A stretch of DNA of 64,000 bases from Thiohalomonadales bacterium (GTDB taxonomy: Bacteria > Pseudomonadota > Gammaproteobacteria > RBG-16-57-12): positions 18,255-82,254 of the forward strand of contig JBNKQQ010000076.1 of the NCBI GenBank assembly GCA_050295955.1, given 5' to 3'. This document shows, one piece after another, positions 6,182-58,142 of this stretch. Every line of letters begins with the position of its first letter. Within the stretch, counting starts at the first letter, position 1. The notes under the pieces are model-generated. The model searched no databases. It was not told the DNA's origin and saw nothing but the letters and a program-made list of their open reading frames with translations. A program made the translations under genes and the position numbers.

Positions 6182-7648
6182 ATGAAGTTTGTGGCTAAAC
6201 CCCTCTATGGTCTTGTCGTTTCTATAGCGATCTCTTCGGTATTTGGCAGCGCTGCCATGGCATCTGATGACCCTCCATCGGGACAACAATCGCTTGAAGA
6301 GGTGATTCCCATTACCATGGCCAATTTGCGAGGCCAGAAGGCGTTGTATGAAGAGGGGTGGTTTGTTATTAGCTCTACTGAGCGTGCCTTTCAATATGCC
6401 CAAGAAAAGTTCATCACCTCCTCCGGGCAGGCGCTGCAGCAGATGCAGGCCTCTCTGGGTGAACGCTCTGAACAATTACCTGATGCCTTGGCTGAAGGGA
6501 TTAATGAAGGGGTTGAATCGGGTAAGTCTTTCTATCAGAAGGGTGGTCAGCGTAGCGATGATATTTACCGGGGCACTCATGAGGTTGCTCAGCAGCAGTT
6601 GAATTATGCCAAGCAGGGTTTTGTGAAAGCGTGGGACCGTTTTGTGTTGGGGAATATTACCCTGGTCAAGCGTACAGAAGAGGATCGCCAAGCGTTGATG
6701 GCGATTCCGGGTGATTACTATCACACCCTCAAATCCGATTTCAGTAATCTCTATCAATTAAGCCAAACTGCCGCGGATGCTATTACGCCAGAGATTGAGC
6801 TCAATTGGTCCGCTTCTCTGCAGCAGGCTCAGGCCAGTTTTGCTGAAGAGTATGAGGCATCGGGTGAGGCCGCCAATTCGTTGAGTGGCCTGGGGGATAT
6901 TCTCGCAGGGTATGCGAAGGCCGCTTATCATGCCATTTTCAAACCCAGTGGGCAGGCTATCGCCAAAGGCGCTACGGCGACGGTGGGTCTGGCGGGACAG
7001 GCACTGTTTCTGCCAACGGCCTCCCTGTTTGTGGTTACCGGACGTACAGTGCAGTCTGCCGGCTTATCCCTCTACTACACCACTAAAACTGGCTACAAGC
7101 TGGTCTCTCCAACGTTAGAGGGCGGTATGCTTGGCGGTGTCTCTTTATTGGCGGGGGCAACAGCACCTGTTACCTATGGCGCTGGCATGTCGGCAGGGAT
7201 GTTAAATCAGGTGGCTGTGACCACTTTATCGCCGGTAGTGGGTGGGGCAACGGCTGTTGGGAGTACCTTGGCAGAGACGGCTGAGTATGCCGGTTTGGTG
7301 ACCTATGATCTTGCCAAGGGGGGCAGCAAGGTTGTGATTAACCAAATCTCCAGTGGCGTTGTCTTGGGTTATAACGCCTTGACAGCACTGCCTACCCAAG
7401 CATTGTTGAGTACGGCGAATGGGGCCTTTTTTCTGGTTTACGATGGCCCCAGGTTGATGGTTGCCAAGGTGAGTGGTCGCTTGTCGGATGAGGGTGAGGC
7501 ACAGACTATCGATAGCCTGCCCGTCGGTACCGTGGTGGATATGAAGCAGTTGGAGCAAGTACCTGAGTTGATGATTGAGCCTGTTTCCGATGATCCCGCG
7601 CTGATTGAACAGGTACTGGAAAACATGGCAGAGGATCTTCGCCAATGA
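6182..7648 (+). CDS. Secreted hypothetical protein. The C-terminal half is Gly/Ala-rich (glycine-zipper-like), followed by a conserved tail domain.
   Basis: Signal peptide MKFVAKPLYGLVVSIAISSVFGSAAMA. Its central segments (GGATAVGS, GAGMSAGM) and C-terminal domain are paralogous to the next gene. Confidence 0.55.
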   Translation: MKFVAKPLYGLVVSIAISSVFGSAAMASDDPPSGQQSLEEVIPITMANLRGQKALYEEGWFVISSTERAFQYAQEKFITSSGQALQQMQASLGERSEQLPDALAEGINEGVESGKSFYQKGGQRSDDIYRGTHEVAQQQLNYAKQGFVKAWDRFVLGNITLVKRTEEDRQALMAIPGDYYHTLKSDFSNLYQLSQTAADAITPEIELNWSASLQQAQASFAEEYEASGEAANSLSGLGDILAGYAKAAYHAIFKPSGQAIAKGATATVGLAGQALFLPTASLFVVTGRTVQSAGLSLYYTTKTGYKLVSPTLEGGMLGGVSLLAGATAPVTYGAGMSAGMLNQVAVTTLSPVVGGATAVGSTLAETAEYAGLVTYDLAKGGSKVVINQISSGVVLGYNALTALPTQALLSTANGAFFLVYDGPRLMVAKVSGRLSDEGEAQTIDSLPVGTVVDMKQLEQVPELMIEPVSDDPALIEQVLENMAEDLRQ

Positions 7649-9480
7649 GAAAGCCGATTACGATTTTGCTTGTTGCAACTGGCCTTGTTCTGCAATTGAG
7701 TGCTTGTTCTAATGCGCCTAAGCAAGAGGATCCCTTAAAGAATACTAAGCAGCTGGTCAAACGTGGCCACGGTGATCTCTATGACAATGGCGCATTCCAG
7801 GTTCCCAATACCAAGATCTCACTGATACCTCCAGGCCCATCGGCCATGGAGTTCGCTAAAGAGCTGGCAGGTGTCCGTGCCCGTCAATCCTTTGAACAGT
7901 CCCTGGAAAATGCCCGTGATGCAGTCTATGTGGTAGCAGATGGGACCCGTAAAAGTTTTACCCTGGCATCCGAGCTACATGACGATACCAATGAGGTGGC
8001 AAATTACATTACAGCGCATTCACGGCCAAATAGTAAGTTATTAATATACAAAGCTTATCCCAAAACCAAAGAGATTATTGGCGAGAGTTGGCAGCTGGCT
8101 GACCGGGTTGCACATCGCATGGAGGAGGGGGCGAGCGGAATGATTGCAGGGGCTGCGGCAGCAGGAGAAGGAATGCGTGAAGCGGCCAAAGCCACTGAAG
8201 GGACATTGGGTAAGTCGTGGGAATTGGCTAAATCATTCTCCAGTGATACCAATGCGTTGGTCGGAGAGGGTTTTGCGACGGCCGGCGAGGCCTTTGTGCA
8301 AGGTTACGCAGCACTGCCCCGACGCCTATCCGAGCGCTGGGGAGCACAGAGTCAAAGTCCCACACTGGATAAATTTGCGGCCAATTATGAGGCTTCACTC
8401 GCCTATCGGGAATCTCGCTCCGAGTTTTATGGCGAGATGGTGAGCGCCTCCTTGAGTGATTATAGCGATGGGGTTTCCGACTCCTTTGCCAATGCGGCGG
8501 CGGCCTTTGATCAAGCGGGTGAAACCGGCTTCAGTCTTGCTACCTTGAAGGCGGCAAGGTGGGTGCTGCAGGGTATCTTTTGGGATGGTTTGATCAAGCC
8601 GGTGGGTGGTGCCACGGTTGGCTCGGTAGGCTATCTCACCGTTAATACAGTCACCTTCCCAGTGATGCTGGTAGCCAGTGAGAGTGTGCCGGTGGCTGAA
8701 GTGGCTGTTGAAGTGGCTTGGAACTCTGCGGCGACAGCCTATGAGGTGGTGGCGCCGACGGCTTCTGCTGCCGTGGCTTCATTGTTTAGTCTTACAGGGA
8801 TGGCCATTGGCCAAACAGCAGCGGGTGGCGCCATTGCGGGTGGTGCTATCGCAGAAGGGAGCGGCTATCTGGTGAAAGGTGCCGCGACGGTGGTTGAGAC
8901 AGGAGGCAAAGTAGCTGGCAAGAGTGTCAGTTACATTGGCGTCCCTCTTACCACAGCCGGCATCAAGATCGCCGGTAGTGCAGCGGGTGTTGTGGTGGGC
9001 GGTGCTCAGGCAGGTGCTGGCGGGGCACTGTTTATTGCCGGAGAGGGCGGGGCGCTTGCTACTCAGGCGGCAGGTAATCTCGCTGCGGGCACTACCTTGG
9101 CTGTCGGTACCGTAGCCTCGACTGTAGCCGGTGCTGGGCTGGGCGTTTATGAACTCTCCAAAGCCGTGGTAGTCCCGACCGGTTACACCTTGGGGAGTGG
9201 CATTGTGCTGGGCTACGGCACCACCTCTCAGTTGGCTGCTCACTCCATCCTAGCGGTTAGCGATGCTGCTTATTTGGTGCTCTCACTTGAAGGTCCTCGA
9301 TGGGTGGTTTATGCGGTCAAAGGTGACCTGAATAAGGGTGATGATTTGGCTGTAGGCACTATGCTGGATCTAGAGCAGATGCAGACGTCAGGTGAGACCT
9401 TCTATGAATTGCCGGTCTCTGATGAGGAGCTAAGCGGGCTACTCGAAGCATTGCCGGAAGAGCTGCCAGAAGCACCTTAA
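7645..9480 (+). CDS. Lipoprotein paralogue of the upstream gene; Gly/Ala-rich, with an acidic C-terminal tail.
   Basis: Lipobox LQLSAC at residues 16-21. The start overlaps the upstream stop (ATGA). A long G/A-rich glycine-zipper-like tract (AGGAIAGGAIAEGSG...GGAQAGAGGALFIAGEGG) sits before a C-terminal domain alignable to that of the 6182-7648 protein. Confidence 0.55.
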   Translation: MRKPITILLVATGLVLQLSACSNAPKQEDPLKNTKQLVKRGHGDLYDNGAFQVPNTKISLIPPGPSAMEFAKELAGVRARQSFEQSLENARDAVYVVADGTRKSFTLASELHDDTNEVANYITAHSRPNSKLLIYKAYPKTKEIIGESWQLADRVAHRMEEGASGMIAGAAAAGEGMREAAKATEGTLGKSWELAKSFSSDTNALVGEGFATAGEAFVQGYAALPRRLSERWGAQSQSPTLDKFAANYEASLAYRESRSEFYGEMVSASLSDYSDGVSDSFANAAAAFDQAGETGFSLATLKAARWVLQGIFWDGLIKPVGGATVGSVGYLTVNTVTFPVMLVASESVPVAEVAVEVAWNSAATAYEVVAPTASAAVASLFSLTGMAIGQTAAGGAIAGGAIAEGSGYLVKGAATVVETGGKVAGKSVSYIGVPLTTAGIKIAGSAAGVVVGGAQAGAGGALFIAGEGGALATQAAGNLAAGTTLAVGTVASTVAGAGLGVYELSKAVVVPTGYTLGSGIVLGYGTTSQLAAHSILAVSDAAYLVLSLEGPRWVVYAVKGDLNKGDDLAVGTMLDLEQMQTSGETFYELPVSDEELSGLLEALPEELPEAP

Positions 9481-17280: not shown

Positions 17281-17706
17281 ATGGAACTATTTATTGGCAA
17301 TATTCCCAAGGACGTTACTAGCTATGAGCTGCGTCGATTTGTAAATGGGATTTTCGAGCAAAATCGTAAAGGGATGTTATTTTGGCGCAAGAAAATGCCG
17401 GATAGCATGAGTTTCAAGATTATTGAAAAGCAAACGGCGAGTGAAATATACCACTACGCAATTGCTACTATATCTCCTCTGGAGGTCGCCGAAGAGTGTA
17501 TCGAATTGCTGGATAAGCAATTCTTCAGAGGTGAACCGCTCGAGGTAAGGGAATATGTTCGTCGTAGCTATATGAACGAGCGTAGAGCGGTGAACTGGCG
17601 CAACATCCCATGGGAAGGCGAGGAGCGTCGCATGGGCGATCGTCGACAAAACGCGTTGTCCAGTAACGTGCCTGTTATGGGCGAGCCTCAACTGGCACCT
17701 GCATAG
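17281..17706 (+). CDS. Putative RRM-like RNA-binding protein.
   Basis: N-terminal ELFIGNIPKDVTSYELRRFVN resembles the RNP2 motif (LFVGNLP..T..EL...F). The Arg-rich C-terminus is RNA-binding-like. Confidence 0.35.
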   Translation: MELFIGNIPKDVTSYELRRFVNGIFEQNRKGMLFWRKKMPDSMSFKIIEKQTASEIYHYAIATISPLEVAEECIELLDKQFFRGEPLEVREYVRRSYMNERRAVNWRNIPWEGEERRMGDRRQNALSSNVPVMGEPQLAPA

Positions 17707-17743: not shown

Positions 17744-18586
17744 TTATTGACGCAATTGTTGAATGACCGGTTGAGTCTCCGGGCGTATGCCGCGCCACAG
17801 GGCAAAGGATTCTGCTGCCTGCTCCACTAGCATGCCCAGCCCATCAATTAATGTTTCACAACCACGCTGCTTCGCCCATTTTAGGAAGGCTGTGGGTTCA
17901 TTGCCATACATCATATCGTAGCAGGCACTACCATCCGCCAATAAATTATCTGGCAGAGGGGGCAATTCTCCTTGCAGGCTGGCGGAGGTGGCGTTGATGA
18001 TTACATCAAACTGTTTCCCTGTTAGCTCTTCATAAGAGCACCCTTCCACATCACCATAGCTATGAAACATCTCTGCCAGTTCAATAGCGCGATCCACGGT
18101 ACGGTTGGCAATCATCAGCTTGCTAGGTTTGGCTTCCAGCAGTGGCAGACAAACGCCCCGTGCGGCACCACCGGCACCTAGCATTAATATCCGTTTATTG
18201 GCCAGTTCAACGCCATGGTTGACCTGTAGATCCTGTAACAGCCCTACACCGTCGGTATTATCACCAAAGATGACGTTATTATCCCGAAAGACAAGGGTAT
18301 TAACCGCTCCAGCCAGTTTAGCGCGCTCAGTCATTTCATCTGCCAGACGCCATGCGTCGGTTTTAAAGGGAACGGTTACGTTGACCCCTTTGCCACCTGT
18401 GGCTTGAAAATTACCGACTGCTTGAGGAAAGCCACCGAGATCTACCAAAATTGCGTTATAGCTCATTCGCTGCCGGGTTTGCTTGGCAAAAGCCGCATGA
18501 ATAAGCGGTGATTTGCTGTGGGCAATGGGATTGCCCATAACACCATATTCATCAGGCTTTTTGTTGAAATCGAATAGATCACTCAT
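17744..18586 (-). CDS. aroE: Shikimate dehydrogenase.
   Basis: The N-terminal GNPIAHSKSP substrate motif and GAGGAARG Rossmann motif. 280 aa. Confidence 0.85.
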   Translation of the reverse strand: MSDLFDFNKKPDEYGVMGNPIAHSKSPLIHAAFAKQTRQRMSYNAILVDLGGFPQAVGNFQATGGKGVNVTVPFKTDAWRLADEMTERAKLAGAVNTLVFRDNNVIFGDNTDGVGLLQDLQVNHGVELANKRILMLGAGGAARGVCLPLLEAKPSKLMIANRTVDRAIELAEMFHSYGDVEGCSYEELTGKQFDVIINATSASLQGELPPLPDNLLADGSACYDMMYGNEPTAFLKWAKQRGCETLIDGLGMLVEQAAESFALWRGIRPETQPVIQQLRQ

Positions 18587-18669: not shown

Positions 18670-19758
<1,089 letters not shown>

Positions 19759-19771
19759 TTAAGCGGAGCGG

Positions 19772-21310
19772 CTAACGTTTTTTAGCCGCTTTTTTCTTGG
19801 TAGTTGCCCGCTTTTTAGTCGCGGATTTTTTTGCGGAGGCTTTCTTTTTCACGGAAGCCTTCTTTTTACTTGCCGCTTTCTTTCTGGTCGCACTCTTATT
19901 TTTAATGGCAGACTTTTTAATATAGGCCTTCTTCTTAGTTGCGGCTTTTTTCTTGGTCACCGCTTTCTTAGTCGCCGACTTCTTCTTAGTGGCGGCTTTT
20001 TTCTTGGTCACCGCTTTCTTCGTTGCCGACTTTTTCTTAGTGGCGGCCTTTTTCTTGGTCACCGCTTTCTTCGTTGCCGACTTTTTCTTAGTGGCGGCCT
20101 TTTTCTTGGTCACCGCTTTCTTAGTCGCGGACTTCTTCTTAGTGGCGGCTTTTTTCTTGGTCACCGCTTTCTTAGTCGCGGACTTCTTTTTAGTGGCGGC
20201 TTTTTTCTTGGTCACCGCTTTCTTAGTCGCGGACTTCTTTTTAGTGGCGGCTTTTTTCTTGGTCACCGCTTTCTTAGTCGCGGACTTCTTCTTAGTGGCG
20301 GCTTTTTTCTTGGTCACCGCTTTCTTAGTCGCGGACTTCTTTTTAGTGGCGGCTTTTTTCTTGGTCACCGTTTTCTTCGTTGCCGACTTCTTCTTAGTGG
20401 CGGCTTTTTTCTTGGTTGCCGCTTTCTTCGTTGCCGACTTCTTCTTAGTGGCCGCCTTTTTCTTAGTTGCCGCTTTCTTAGTCACGGACTTCTTCTTAGT
20501 GGCGGCTTTCTTTTTAGTCGCCGCTTTTTTCTTAACGGCGCGCTTCTCGACAGGCTCTTCCTCAGTAACCGTTTCTTCAACCTGCGCTGCAGGTTCCTCA
20601 GTCGTTGTTTCTGACTCTAGAGGTAGAGGCAGGGATTGAGGCTCATTTTCTGGCTCTTCTTTTCCCAGGGAGTCAATGACATGACAAACACGGTTGAAGA
20701 TATCTTCAATCTCACCAATACCTTCGATGCGTTGCAGAATTGCTTTGTCACTGTAGTAGTTAATTAGTGGGCTGGTTTGCTCTTCGTATACCTTAAGGCG
20801 GCTGCCGATGGTCTCTTCGTTGTCATCAGAGCGGTGTTGCAGTTCTCCACCACACTTATCACAAACACCCTCTTTCTCTGTGGGGGAGAAGAAGACATTG
20901 TAAACTTGGCCGCATGCCTTACAGGTACGGCGGCCGGTAATACGTTTGAGCAGTACATCAAAATCGACGTTAATCAGGATTGCACCATCAAGTGGTTGAC
21001 CAACCTTGCTTAGCAGTTGGTCTAGTGCTTCTGCCTGAGGAATATTGCGGGGGAAACCATCCAGAATATAGCCATTGTGGGTATCAGGTTGTGCGAGACG
21101 TTCCTCGATCATGCCTAGCACCACCGAGTCAGGAACCAGCTGTCCGGCATCCATGAACTCTTTGGCTTGTTTTCCGAGTTCGGTGCCGCTGGATACGGCA
21201 GCACGGAGTAGGTCGCCAGTGGAGATTTGCGGAATATTGTATTTATCGATTAGTTTCTGAGCTTGGGTACCTTTACCTGAACCCGGCGCACCTAACAGTA
21301 CGATTCTCAT
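19772..21310 (-). CDS. adk: Adenylate kinase with a Cys4 zinc LID, fused in frame to an acidic linker and a long Lys/Ala/Thr-rich histone-H1/AlgP-like repeat tail.
   Basis: [17 protein letters not shown]-loop and CKACG...CDKCGG zinc LID. I chose the start at ATG 21310, which has a GGGAGG SD 10 nt upstream. After about 222 aa of Adk there is no stop. Instead come about 40 acidic residues ([24 protein letters not shown]), then roughly a dozen repeats of [17 protein letters not shown]. Confidence 0.85.
19790..20545. repeat. 51-bp tandem-repeat array inside the adk 3' region, encoding the 17-aa K/A/T repeats.
   Basis: Near-identical units of ...TTAGTCGCGGACTTCTTTTTAGTGGCGGCTTTTTTCTTGGTCACCGCTTTC... 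repeat head to tail across about 600 bp. Copies at both edges are degenerate. Confidence 0.85.
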
Positions 21311-21454
21311 AGCGCAGTTGCCTCCCTCGGCAATATTTATCATTTTGATTATAGGAAATGTAGCGGTTAGCTATTTGAACCCCAGATTATGTCAATGAGC
21401 ACTGGTAAATTACAAGTTTTGATGGGATTAATTGAGGAAAAAAGTGCTTTTTAA

Positions 21455-21476
21455 AGAGAAAGGGCTCTTTTCAGAG
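21455..21476 (-). terminator. Hairpin terminator downstream of hpf.
   Basis: GGGCTCT-TTTC-AGAGCCC stem-loop, with a T-rich run on the minus strand. Confidence 0.5.
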
Positions 21477-21506
21477 CCCAATTGATGTTGATATGACCAA
21501 TGTTAT

Positions 21507-37899: not shown

Positions 37900-40773
37900 T
37901 CAAGCGCAGGGCTCCGGTTGCAACTGCACTAACATGCCTAAGTGGGTTTGATGGGCGAATTCCATCCGCGAGAGTTTGCCGCGGTAACGCCCCGTTTCCA
38001 AAGTGAGCTGACTGTGATAGTTGTCTGTATCGCTGTGTATATTGAGGTAGTTATCGCCTTGTTGTAGATAATCCTGAATAGCTGTTGGCAGGACCTCATC
38101 TCCCTTCTGTCGTAGTAGTTGATGGCGGCCTCGGCCAATGAGAGATTCAAATTGTGGATTACAAAGCTGTAGGTAACCTTGCTGATCAATGAAGAAGGCA
38201 GGTATTTCTAGTGCATCAAGAATTCCCTGAGCAAAGGCACTTTTTTCGCTGGCAGTTTGCTCCGCCTGTTTTATCCGTGTTACTTCGACAGTGGTTAACA
38301 CAATACCGGCAAACTGGCTTTCGGAGATGCGGTAGGGGAGGCCCCGCAAAATAAACCAGCGGTTGTCATAGCTGAACTCCCGTTCGATGGTATGGGTGCC
38401 ACGGTTGACTTCGTCGAGAAACTGGCGAATATCCAGGTCTTTGATGTTATGGGAGAGGTGAAAAATAGAACGACCAATATCACTATCTATAATATTGAAC
38501 AATTCGGCTACCCGCGACGAAAATCGGCGGATTTCCATGTCTTCATCCAGAAATAGGGTGCCGATCTCGGTATTATCCAGCAAGTTATCTAGATCGTTAG
38601 TGGTTTCAGTCAGCTCCATAATTTTGCTCTGGTATTCGGCATTAACGGTGTAGAGCTCCTCATTGACCGATTGCAGCTCCTCATTGGTACTTTGCAGCTC
38701 TTCGTTACTGGAGAGCAACTCCTCATTGGTCGCCTGTAGCTCCTCATTAGAGGTCTCTAGCTCCTCGACAGTTGCCTGTAGGCTTTCACGGTTAAATTGC
38801 AGCTCCTGCTCCAGATCGGCGATACGAGTCTCCGCCTCCTTGGTTAAATTATAGACTGAATCTACATTGTCGTGATGAGCCTCTTGCTGACTGGAGACCA
38901 GGAACGCGGCTACTAGCGGTACCTGCCCCCGTTCTTGATCCATGCGGCGAATGAAGAGGCGGTACTCACAATAGCGGCCATCCAGTTTTTGCAGGTGAAT
39001 CTGATTGAAGGCGATGGATTTTCCAGTATTTAGGCACTTTTTGATGCTGGTGGTAACCGGCAGCGCTAGTTCTTTGATGAGGAGTTTACCAATATCAGCA
39101 CTGATCATGCCGTTGGGTAGGCTTATAAAATCACGAGTATTGCCCACGGAGTGGAGTAGTTCCAATTCACTATTGATAACAATGGCGAACTCAAAAAACT
39201 CTTTACCGATAAGATTTAATAGCCGTTCTTGTAACCGTTCCTGATTATAGAGCTTTTTATGGGCACTCATTGATGCAATAGCACTTTCATGTCCCTGGCT
39301 TTGCTCCCGCTCAGTATGTTGTAGGCTGAGGCTGGAGATCAGGCGACGATTCCCCAGAGAGCGGAAGATATTCCACTTCATGTGTACCGGCTTGAAGGAG
39401 TCCTGCATGTCGCCAGTGCTTTCGCTGGCGCCCAACAACATCAGACCATGGTTGGAGAGAGCAAAGTTGAAATACTCCAGTGCTTTACGTTGCAATATGG
39501 GCTGGAAGTAGATGAGCAAATTGCGACAGGAGATGAAGTTGAGATTGGTGAATGGGGGATCTTTTACCACGTTGTGTTTGGCAAATACTACCTTTTCCCG
39601 CAGTGCGCGGCTGACGATGTAGGTGTCGTCACGGTGCATAAAGTACTTGTTCAGGTAGCGGTTGGGAATATCGGCGGCAACACTCTCCGGGTAACGGCCG
39701 ATACTGGCGAAGTCTAGGGCAGCTTCATCTACATCTGTCGCAAATACCTTAACTCCAAGGGGGAGGCCCAGGGTGTCAATATTCTCCATGAACAGCATAG
39801 CCAAGGTATAGGCCTCTTCACCGGTGGAGCAGCCAGCGACCCAGATACGCACCTCACTCTGCTGTGTAGGGAGTTCAGTGAGAAATTCAGGTAGTACGGA
39901 ATTTTCCAGAGTCTCAAATACCTCGGAATCTCGGAAGAAGTTGGTGACGCCGATCAGTAATTCTTTATAGAGCATGCGCAGCTCTTCAGGGTTGGCGGCC
40001 AAATAGTCAGCATACTCCTGATGGGTTGGGATTTGGGTAACGGACATTCGTCGCTCGATTCTACGCAGCACGGTAGAGGGCTTGTAGAAGGTAAAGTCAT
40101 GTTTGAAGCGATTTCGTAGCAGTGAGAAGATGGCTTTGATATGGTCGACACTGTCGATTTCCAGCTCACCACTTTTTAGGGCGGGGGGAAGAGGTTCTGA
40201 CTGGTGATTGGCATAGGCTACCAGGCGTTCTGCGATCTCTTCGGGTGAGAGGATGTAATCCGCTAAGCCGGTAGTGATGACACTGCGCGGCATGCCATCA
40301 AATTTTGCGGACTGCTCATTTTGAGCGATGACTATGCCTCCCATCTCTTTGATGCGGCGCACCCCACGGGTACCATCGGTACCGGTTCCAGAGAGTACGA
40401 TAGCAACGGCTTTTTCCTTTTGGTCATCCGCCAGGGATTGGAATAGCAAATCCACCGGCAAATTCAAGGTATGCTTAGGCGGCTTATCTTGCAGACAGAG
40501 TCGGCCTTCCCGGATAGTGATATTTTTGGTAGGTGGTGCGAGGTAGATATGGTCCGGTTTTAGTCCCATCCCCTGACTGACTTCTTCGACCGCCAATATG
40601 GTGCGCTTGGCGAGTAGCTCCGGCATAAGGCTTTTATGGTCAGGAGAGAGGTGCTGTACCACGATAAAGGCGAGGCCACTGTTACGGGGAAAGTTCTCAA
40701 AAAGCGCTGTGATGGCTTCCAAGCCGCCGGCAGACGCACCGACACCGATGTAGTATTTAACGTCGTTATTCAC
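37900..40773 (-). CDS. CheB methylesterase-CheR methyltransferase fusion protein with a coiled-coil and PAS domains.
   Basis: N-terminal CheB catalytic domain ([10 protein letters not shown]). CheR SAM domain ([17 protein letters not shown]). Heptad coiled coil ([33 protein letters not shown]). C-terminal PAS repeats. Confidence 0.85.
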
Positions 40774-56837: not shown

Positions 56838-58142
56838 ATGATCAATCCGCGAGAATTTCCCAAACGTCGAAAAGAGCTGATGCGCATGATGGGGGACCAG
56901 ACCATCGCCATTCTGCCTACCGCCAGGGAAAAGGTGCGTAACCGTGATGCGGATTATCCCTATCGAGCGGATAGTGATTTCTACTACCTGACCGGTTTTC
57001 CTGAGCCAGAAGCGGTGATGGTGTTGCTGCCGGGTCGTGAGAACGGCGAATTTATCATGTTTTGTCGCGAGCGGGATCCAGAGCAGGAGACCTGGCATGG
57101 TCGCCGTGCAGGACTGGAAGGGGCCTGTGAATGTTACGGTGCCGACGACGCCTTTCCCATTACTGATATTGATGACATCCTGCCTGGTCTGATCGAAAAC
57201 TGTGACAAGGTCTACTACACCTTCGGTAACGATAGCGAGTTTGATCAGAAGATTACCAGTATGGTGCATACTCTTCGCAACATGAGTCGCGCCGGTACTC
57301 ACAGCCCCCATGAATTTGTGGCGTTGGATCACCTGCTCCATGATATGCGTCTCTATAAGAGTCGTAGTGAGCAGAAGGTGATGCGCGAGGCTGGTCGTAT
57401 TTCTGCTGCAGCTCACGTCCGGGCCATGCAGTTGTGCCATCCTGGCATGGCAGAGTATCAGCTTGAAGCGGAATTTCTCTACCAATTCCGCCGACACAAT
57501 GGCCACCCCGCCTATACTACGATTGTGGGTGGCGGTGAAAACGGCTGTATTTTGCACTACACCGAGAATGATGCTGAACTGAAGGGTGGGGATCTGGTAT
57601 TGATCGATGCGGGTTGTGAGATCGATAACTACGCTTCTGATATTACCCGTACCTTCCCGGTCAATGGTCAGTTCAGTGAGGCGCAACGTGCCGTCTATCA
57701 AGTCGTGCTGGATGCCCAATACGCGGCGATTGAACAAGTTAAGCCGGGCAACCATTGGGATGATCCTCACCAGGCTGCTGTGAAGGTGCTAACCAAAGGT
57801 TTGGTGAAGTTGGGACTTCTGAAGGGCACGGTGAGTAAGTTGATCAAAGATCAGGCCTATCGACGCTTCTACATGCACCGTACCGGTCACTGGATCGGTA
57901 TGGATGTTCATGATGTAGGCGACTACAAGGTGGGTGATCAGTGGCGAGTATTGGAGCCGGGCATGGTGCTGACTATCGAGCCAGGGCTCTACATTGGTAA
58001 CGACCGAGATATTCCCAAGGCCTATCGTAATATTGGCATTCGTATCGAGGATGATGTGCTGGTGACCAAAGAGGGGTATGAGATCCTTACCGACGGTGTA
58101 CCCAAAGAGATTGATGATATCGAGCAACTGATGGCGGGGTGA
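56838..58142 (+). CDS. pepP: Xaa-Pro aminopeptidase.
   Basis: M24B pita-bread metal ligands (DAGCEIDNYASDITRT, HWIGMDVHD, the EPG..IED region). 434 aa. Confidence 0.9.
   Translation: MINPREFPKRRKELMRMMGDQTIAILPTAREKVRNRDADYPYRADSDFYYLTGFPEPEAVMVLLPGRENGEFIMFCRERDPEQETWHGRRAGLEGACECYGADDAFPITDIDDILPGLIENCDKVYYTFGNDSEFDQKITSMVHTLRNMSRAGTHSPHEFVALDHLLHDMRLYKSRSEQKVMREAGRISAAAHVRAMQLCHPGMAEYQLEAEFLYQFRRHNGHPAYTTIVGGGENGCILHYTENDAELKGGDLVLIDAGCEIDNYASDITRTFPVNGQFSEAQRAVYQVVLDAQYAAIEQVKPGNHWDDPHQAAVKVLTKGLVKLGLLKGTVSKLIKDQAYRRFYMHRTGHWIGMDVHDVGDYKVGDQWRVLEPGMVLTIEPGLYIGNDRDIPKAYRNIGIRIEDDVLVTKEGYEILTDGVPKEIDDIEQLMAG

Follow-up and report, generated by a model that had tools for sequence, protein, structure and literature searches.

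A homogeneous 51-bp tandem repeat array encodes a predicted polycationic tail on an adenylate kinase of a Thiohalomonadales bacterium

We analyzed 64,000 nucleotides of contig JBNKQQ010000076.1 (assembly GCA_050295955.1, positions 18,255 to 82,254 of the forward strand) from a gammaproteobacterium of the Thiohalomonadales. This whole stretch is referred to below as the window, and positions are counted from its first letter. On the minus strand of the window lies adk, the gene for adenylate kinase (Adk), which ends in a run of near-identical 51-bp direct repeats encoding a long, lysine-rich tail. We argue that the array is probably young and probably changes its length in frame, and that the tail it encodes probably binds cellular polyanions. 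The parts of the gene, and the frame that is open opposite to it, are the following.

19772..21310, minus strand: adk gene with a C-terminal tail, 512 amino acids (aa) from the probable start M12
20660..21310, minus strand: Adk catalytic core, residues 1-217, net charge -7, isoelectric point 5.1
20540..20659, minus strand: acidic linker rich in Glu, Pro, and Thr, 40 aa, net charge -12
19775..20539, minus strand: polycationic tail, 255 aa, net charge +121
20525-20539, minus strand: partial degenerate unit on the 5' side of the array, from the codon-register table
19913-20524, minus strand: 51-bp array, 12 units of 17 codons in frame, from Tandem Repeats Finder and the codon-register table
19964-20371, minus strand: most homogeneous core of the array, 8 units, 0-7 of 51 nt apart in pairwise comparison
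19775-19912, minus strand: two degenerate distal units and a short basic C-terminal end
19953..20639, plus strand: antisense shadow open reading frame (ORF), 228 aa, with repeats of the FLVAAFF type

The longest ORF at this position (19772..21343, minus strand) would encode 523 aa. The true start is probably the methionine of the MRIVLLG sequence at 21310, because homologues begin with these residues; a Shine-Dalgarno-like sequence, GAGGGAGG, is found about 10 nt upstream of this ATG. Judged by its sequence, the N-terminal part of 217 residues is a canonical long-type adenylate kinase. Indeed, residues 16-201 match the Pfam family ADK (PF00406) with 196.8 bits (cut-off 26.8) and an E-value of 2.8e-58, over positions 1-150 of the 151 in the model. 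ADK_lid was matched with 58.8 bits (cut-off 26.6), AAA_17 was also matched, and the best match of the protein in the PDB was adenylate kinase 5g3y (E-value 4.9e-81, residues 1-208). The core contains the P-loop GAPGSGKGT, the HRSDDN motif, the conserved Arg/Asp motifs, and a zinc-type lid with four cysteines (CKAC...CDKC); its catalytic motifs align without gaps to a solved Adk.

The core is followed by the linker, for which AlphaFold2 predicts no secondary structure (predicted local distance difference test score, pLDDT, of 26-40), and then by the tail, which is composed of 46% lysine, 24% alanine, 16% threonine, and 7% serine. The ORF carrying this tail is the sole K/R-rich ORF in the window. 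The tail contains no proline at all, which ruled out a KPAA tail of the type found in AlgP and PhaF.

Tandem Repeats Finder placed the strongest array of the region at 19928-20527, with a period of 51 bp, 11.8 copies, 93% matches, 0% indels, and a score of 962; no other array of comparable strength was found in the window. A weaker sub-period of 18 bp underlies the DNA of the array, and each 17-aa unit is made up of three sub-motifs of 5-6 aa. Pairwise differences among the 12 units range from 0 to 15 of 51 nt. In the eight central units, the 17-aa peptide is the same throughout except for one residue, and three pairs of units in the array are identical in their DNA (359=376, 342=393, and 410=427). 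The longest exact direct repeats in this core measure 118 bp (offset 153), 101 bp (offset 51), and 79 bp (offset 102), far above chance expectation. Two unit subtypes, TCC-GCG-ACT and TCG-GCA-ACG, stand in blocks along the array, which points to the duplication of multi-unit segments. The distal degenerate units differ from the core units at 19-24 of 51 nt and are probably older. These results agree with the original prediction, made from the sequence alone, in which near-identical 51-bp direct repeats with degenerate copies at both ends (here 19775-19912 and 20525-20539) were described as the tail of an Adk fusion. The limits it gave for the array, 19790-20545, were about right (the whole basic tail spans 19775-20539), and, as it had pointed out, a unit of 3x17 (17 codons) keeps changes by whole units in frame.

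The array bears marks of constraint. Among its 12 units, the variant types are 15 synonymous and 7 non-synonymous, where 23% synonymous would be expected (binomial P = 8e-6, or 1.6e-3 if 35% is expected so as to allow for transition bias); the eight central units contribute 6 synonymous types and 1 non-synonymous type. The lysine codons of the tail (19775-20539) are 65 AAG and 50 AAA, versus 12 AAG and 28 AAA in the Adk core (20660-21310), hemB (18670-19686), and aroE (17744-18586) (Fisher p = 0.006). In addition, no run of A in the tail exceeds 7 despite its 118 lysines. This preference for AAG and the short A-runs suggest that slippery poly-A is avoided in a sequence that is translated.

Tails of this kind are found on hundreds of Adk proteins from environmental Gammaproteobacteria. 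A search with the whole protein revealed more than 100 Adk proteins, 347-510 aa long, whose K/A-rich tails differ widely in unit type, the named sources being Thioalkalivibrio, tubeworm endosymbionts, Candidatus Tenderia, Acidiferrobacter, and Thiohalomonadaceae. Several of these homologues have precomputed matches to the Pfam family HC2 (PF07382). When only the linker and tail were used as the query (no Adk residues, E <= 1e-5), 79 matches were obtained, of which about 67 have an Adk domain, and these include a separate Adk lineage with 35-39% core identity. Such tails occur on no fewer than three separate Adk lineages, and tails of 140-300 aa persist in lineages where the identity of the Adk cores has fallen to 55-68%.

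Some matches lie further afield. A divergent Adk-like lineage (P0225-P0230, P0236, P0237, P0249, and P0250; 35% core identity) combines the P-loop GPRGSGKEE with a Lys-rich tail and carries the label "AAA family ATPase, Thiotrichales". Similar K/A/T/S tails were seen in other taxa at the N-terminus of DksA and endonuclease III, at the C-terminus of ObgE, an M24 peptidase, and an S1/NYN protein, and internally in a helix-turn-helix protein (these non-Adk carriers are P0244, P0259, P0260, P0262, P0263, P0269, P0271, and P0273). The M24 aminopeptidase P of the window (56838-58142) has no K-rich tail.

Gene order and sequence identify the tailed gene as the orthologous housekeeping adk rather than a paralogue, since the order hpf-adk-hemB-aroE is kept in relatives. 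The longer order bioD-DUF411-...-hpf-adk-hemB-aroE is common to the window and to the related loci L001, L081, L083, and L086. In three of these loci are found the closest orthologues of the window adk, with 80-83% core identity, all of them tail-less.

L001, 3971-4654: tail-less adk
L081, 51-737: tail-less adk
L083, 3001-3687: tail-less adk

The two nearest orthologues end in a polar extension of 13 aa, DTPQISDALSTEK and DAPQASQEDNKEA; this may represent either the starting point of the linker or what is left of one. In L001, the adk stop codon lies only 31 nt ahead of hemB. The adk-hemB spacers of L081 and L083 (213-245 nt) hold no remnant of a lysine-coding tail, and only the part of the window spacer that comprises the terminator and the hemB leader aligns with them. 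In a bootstrapped neighbor-joining tree of the cores, the window core falls within a clade of 11 members (98/100 bootstrap), the other ten of which are tail-less. Farther orthologues at the adk-hemB locus are tailed, and their linkers are unrelated to that of the window. Because the clade mates are tail-less and the linker is unrelated to the other linkers, the sequences lean toward a recent gain or regrowth of the tail over its retention with several losses. The latter is kept as an alternative because distant orthologues at the same locus are tailed and loss is mechanistically easy. The unit identity of the window array is 93%, versus 61-85% in 21 related loci, which makes it the most homogeneous of the tail arrays examined; such exceptional homogeneity points to a young array. 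The array had been predicted to lie inside an essential gene. This description fits the gene but not the array, which lies in a dispensable appendage with no counterpart in the closest orthologues.

Changes in tail length can be followed in relatives of the window protein. In the divergent Thiotrichales lineage, a 12-aa unit is present three times, twice, or once in proteins of 410, 398, and 386 aa, respectively, that are otherwise 100% identical; the form with three copies occurs on 220 contigs. In a second lineage, lengths of 392, 382, and 372 aa correspond to steps of two AAKKK units. Within clusters of 90% identity, we found proteins of 439, 387, and 342 aa and of 412 and 340 aa with identical ends. 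When all fetched proteins were compared as near-identical pairs (cores at least 98% identical and the same last eight residues), length differed in 58 of 69 tailed pairs and in 0 of 101 tail-less pairs, in a protein database that is clustered and so enriched for variants. The tail repeat periods at all 21 related loci are divisible by 3. By analogy, these observations strongly support a tail length at the window locus that changes by whole units. Stretches of 79-118 bp that recur exactly give both replication slippage and homologous unequal exchange plenty of sequence to act on. An on/off switch by phase variation was ruled out: the unit is of 51 = 3 x 17 nt and the ORF carries it at its 3' end, so that slippage would alter the length of the protein and not its expression.

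Proteins with comparable tails are known in bacteria. Chlamydial Hc2 (hctB), Bordetella BpH1, and the window tail are all rich in Lys, Ala, and Thr and poor in proline, with sub-motifs of 5-6 aa grouped into longer units. Hc2 condenses DNA, and its length varies through the in-frame duplication and deletion of 108-bp elements, to a degree that makes it suitable as a typing target; its units form silent-site subtypes, and the length of the protein differs between strains (PMC2848022). While Hc2 is a stand-alone DNA-condensing protein with a 36-aa unit, the repeats of the window are 17-aa units appended to a metabolic enzyme. The Pfam family HC2 (PF07382) was not matched by the whole protein at E <= 0.01 or by the linker and tail at E <= 10, and the likeness of the window tail to Hc2 lies in composition and repeat architecture.

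The Pseudomonas proteins AlgP and PhaF share with the window protein a folded N-terminal domain followed by a long lysine/alanine repeat tail. AlgP localizes to polyphosphate (polyP) granules, and a fragment of its KPAA tail binds DNA; deletion of the C-terminal repeats disrupts the number, size, and spacing of these granules, and the tail is a mutational hot spot (PMC9239181). The tail of PhaF binds DNA and is disordered until bound (PMC3574117). The tails of both proteins set a subcellular position, at polyP granules, polyhydroxyalkanoate granules, or the nucleoid. Their repeats are of 4-5 aa and contain proline, whereas the window tail is proline-free and has a higher-order unit of 17 aa. 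Moreover, their N-terminal domains are structural or regulatory, whereas that of the window protein is enzymatic, and there is no sequence-family link between them.

Other parallels are more distant. The lysine-rich tails of the actinobacterial HU-type proteins MDP1/HupB and HupS and the H1-like domain that DksA carries in DdbA are, like the window tail, polycationic disordered regions on a housekeeping domain. The HU-type and DksA partners are nucleoid or RNA-polymerase proteins, and Adk differs from them as a partner; we know of no nucleic-acid role for Adk. The C-terminal domain of eukaryotic linker histone H1 resembles the window tail in its composition (K, A, S/T), its length of about 100-250 aa, its high positive charge, and its low complexity. 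However, proline and S/TPKK motifs occur in the H1 tail, which comes after a globular domain of the winged-helix type, while the window tail is proline-free, and we claim no homology. Eukaryotic Adk enzymes can also carry extensions: in Plasmodium AK2, for example, a terminal extension with an N-terminal basic stretch places Adk at a particular cellular site (PMC4409355). Extensions of this kind are short, lipid-modified membrane targeting signals and not repeat arrays, unlike the window tail.

On this evidence, we consider it probable that the window carries a young array that changes its length in frame and encodes a polyanion-binding tether, similar to those of Hc2 and AlgP, on a housekeeping Adk. 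An 18-bp motif (AATKKK-type) would have given rise to the 51-bp unit of three motifs, which would then have been duplicated singly and in multi-unit blocks, steps that are read from the sequence itself. Replication slippage or unequal recombination would add or remove whole 17-aa units and leave the frame intact, as is expected from the perfect identity of 79-118 bp between units and their 3n length. The length of the tail would thereby be an unstable, tunable character. From the charge of +121 and from what is known of AlgP, PhaF, and Hc2, we infer that the tail binds polyanions. It may act as an electrostatic tether or condensing arm, the candidate partners being nucleoid DNA, RNA or ribosomes, and polyP granules. 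Such a tether would concentrate Adk, and hence the equilibration of AMP, ADP, and ATP, at these sites, and the tail would add a large histone-like positive charge to the cell.

Several points weigh against this reading. A search with the core alone returned, as the ten nearest proteins, Adk sequences of 215-228 aa with 77-83% identity and no basic tail. With close orthologues that are tail-less, Adk does not need the tail in order to work, and the tail could be an expansion that the enzyme tolerates. The exact window protein was missing from a collection of 15 billion proteins. In the genome and metagenome collections, a genome scan, protein searches, a scan of metagenome DNA for a 32-nt pattern of the unit, and a protein-guided metagenome scan yielded nothing more than 83% identical. 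Differences in copy number among metagenome assemblies can stem from the collapse of repeats. The sequence points to no particular polyanion, if any is bound. No Pfam family was found on the linker and tail alone (E <= 10). AlphaFold2, run on the single sequence, gave a mean pLDDT of 56.5 and modeled the tail as long helices and the core poorly; this model is uninformative and was given no weight as structural evidence. No ppk, ppk2, ppx, or other polyphosphate genes were found within the window. Finally, because the wobble positions of the antisense ORF lie opposite those of the sense frame, the substitutions are 14 synonymous and 8 non-synonymous in the antisense frame, compared with 15 and 7 in the sense frame. 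With wobble positions shared in this way, substitution counts show constraint without telling which strand is read.

An alternative that we regard as possible but doubtful is that the tail docks Adk specifically on polyP granules, where the ADP formed from AMP and polyP by enzymes of the PPK2/PAP type would be turned locally into ATP and AMP, the whole forming a local polyP-to-ATP module. In favor of such docking, AlgP, with its lysine-rich H1-like tail, was recovered from polyP granules (PMC9239181), and the overproduction of PPK1 in E. coli raised Adk activity and gave PAP activity (PMC3163519). The named tailed homologues come from sulfur- or iron-oxidizing Gammaproteobacteria. Many members of this guild store polyP. 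On the other hand, the window lacks ppk, ppk2, and ppx, close relatives have no tail, and the like tails on DksA, ObgE, endonuclease III, and S1/NYN proteins point equally to DNA or RNA. A wider version, which we put forward only tentatively, is that Adk has gained histone-like polylysine tails repeatedly and independently in environmental Gammaproteobacteria, most of them sulfur oxidizers, with the window tail as the youngest instance found, and that tethering to polyP granules or the nucleoid forms a confined, adenylate-buffering compartment for making ATP from polyP. The reach or valency of the tail would be tuned in populations as repeats are gained and lost in frame.

The tail could also be a low-complexity expansion that is tolerated and has no function, the loss of a stop codon or a small insertion having exposed a lysine motif prone to slippage. 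The tail-less state of the closest orthologues fits this explanation, as do the free variation of tail length and unit type between lineages and the lack of any recognizable domain in the tail. We find it unlikely, however, given that tails occur on at least three separate Adk lineages, that about 67 of the 79 tail-only matches are Adk, and that tails of 140-300 aa are retained at 55-68% core identity. The synonymous excess and the non-random choice of lysine codons also argue against it, and a protein of charge +121 made from an abundant housekeeping gene would be unlikely to be physiologically neutral.

It is quite unlikely that the copy number of the array, as opposed to its existence, is an artefact of an assembler that merged or multiplied units. 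Short reads have difficulty with exact repeats of 79-118 bp, within about 400 bp at 86% identity or more, and gaps occur in related tails: those of the loci L002 and L010 contain N runs (X in translation). L002 and L087 have the same core identity to the window (67.1%) and the same top repeat periods, with tails of 358 and 309 aa, respectively, which suggests that assemblies break or miscount in such arrays. In the window, however, the frame stays open through all units and leads into a normal degenerate C-terminus and then a terminator, and the mosaic of distinguishing synonymous variants would anchor the assembly. Among the relatives, the 36-bp x 3 case is unlikely to be an artefact, as it is shorter than a typical read.

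We consider it very improbable that the plus-strand FLVAAFF frame at 19953-20639 truly encodes a hydrophobic repeat protein: the frame is open for 228 codons and its substitutions (14:8) are nearly as synonymous as those of the sense frame, but the latter follows from the coincident wobble positions, its TTG start falls within the array, and it ends opposite the linker. With T making up only 8% of the sense strand of the array, the antisense has few A and few stop codons, and of the three antisense frames two are open or nearly so; the ORF is thus likely a by-product of base composition. The sense reading is preferred because it is continuous with Adk, is followed by a terminator, and belongs to an architecture that recurs, with different units, in hundreds of homologues. 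The original prediction had called the antisense frame open but meaningless. The frame is open, and it is likely meaningless, but the substitution counts cannot show this, and the ratio of synonymous to non-synonymous changes was dropped as an argument for dismissing it (14:8 vs 15:7).

The signals that flank adk are listed below. The adk stop codon lies 22 nt ahead of the terminator-like hairpin. The number of promoter-like sites found was no higher than expected by chance.

19715..19749, minus strand: terminator-like hairpin, AGGGTGATTG-CCAGT-CAATCACCCT, then ATTTTGTTTT (T-tract)
21386..21415, minus strand: sigma-70-like promoter match by consensus, TTGTAA-18-CATAAT with TG, upstream of adk
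21462-21479: hairpin after hpf and ahead of the adk promoter match

The neighbors of adk in the window are hpf, hemB, aroE, bioD, and the genes for DUF411 and for a hexapeptide-repeat protein. The last of these and aroE have between them a 141-aa ORF (17281-17706) with no Pfam match, and L081 and L083 have a 139-aa gene, also with no Pfam match, at the corresponding position. Two adjoining plus-strand ORFs, 6182-7648 (488 aa) and 7645-9480 (611 aa), had no Pfam match at E <= 1e-6. Weaker repeats were seen at two other places: an imperfect 42/21-bp tandem repeat at 38654-38766 (2.3 copies, 72-81% matches), which lies in the minus-strand ORF 37900-40773, a CheB-CheR-PAS fusion of 957 aa, with the CheR region on one side and the PAS region on the other, and a weak 21-bp repeat in aroE at 18253-18302 (2.4 copies, 75% matches), which is probably due to chance.

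Length-variable coding arrays for lysine-rich, H1-like sequences are already known from Hc2/hctB, BpH1, and AlgP. What is unusual here is the core metabolic enzyme as the partner and the apparent convergence on that partner. Adk is among the best-studied enzymes and is normally a compact, soluble protein of about 215 aa. We found no description of an Adk with a lysine-rich tail in the literature searched (open-access papers and bioRxiv), and databases label the tailed proteins merely as "adenylate kinase" or "AAA family ATPase". In practice, arrays such as this one will break or be miscounted in short-read assemblies, and the antisense frame invites false gene calls. As the closest orthologues have no tail, the window locus presents a newly built one and offers a natural comparison of one enzyme with and without it. 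A widespread class of Adk with polycationic tails of 150-300 aa would add a core metabolic enzyme to the few structural proteins with H1-like repeat tails in bacteria (Hc2, BpH1, AlgP, PhaF, and MDP1), and would mean that adenylate equilibration is spatially organized, at the nucleoid, the ribosomes, or polyP granules.

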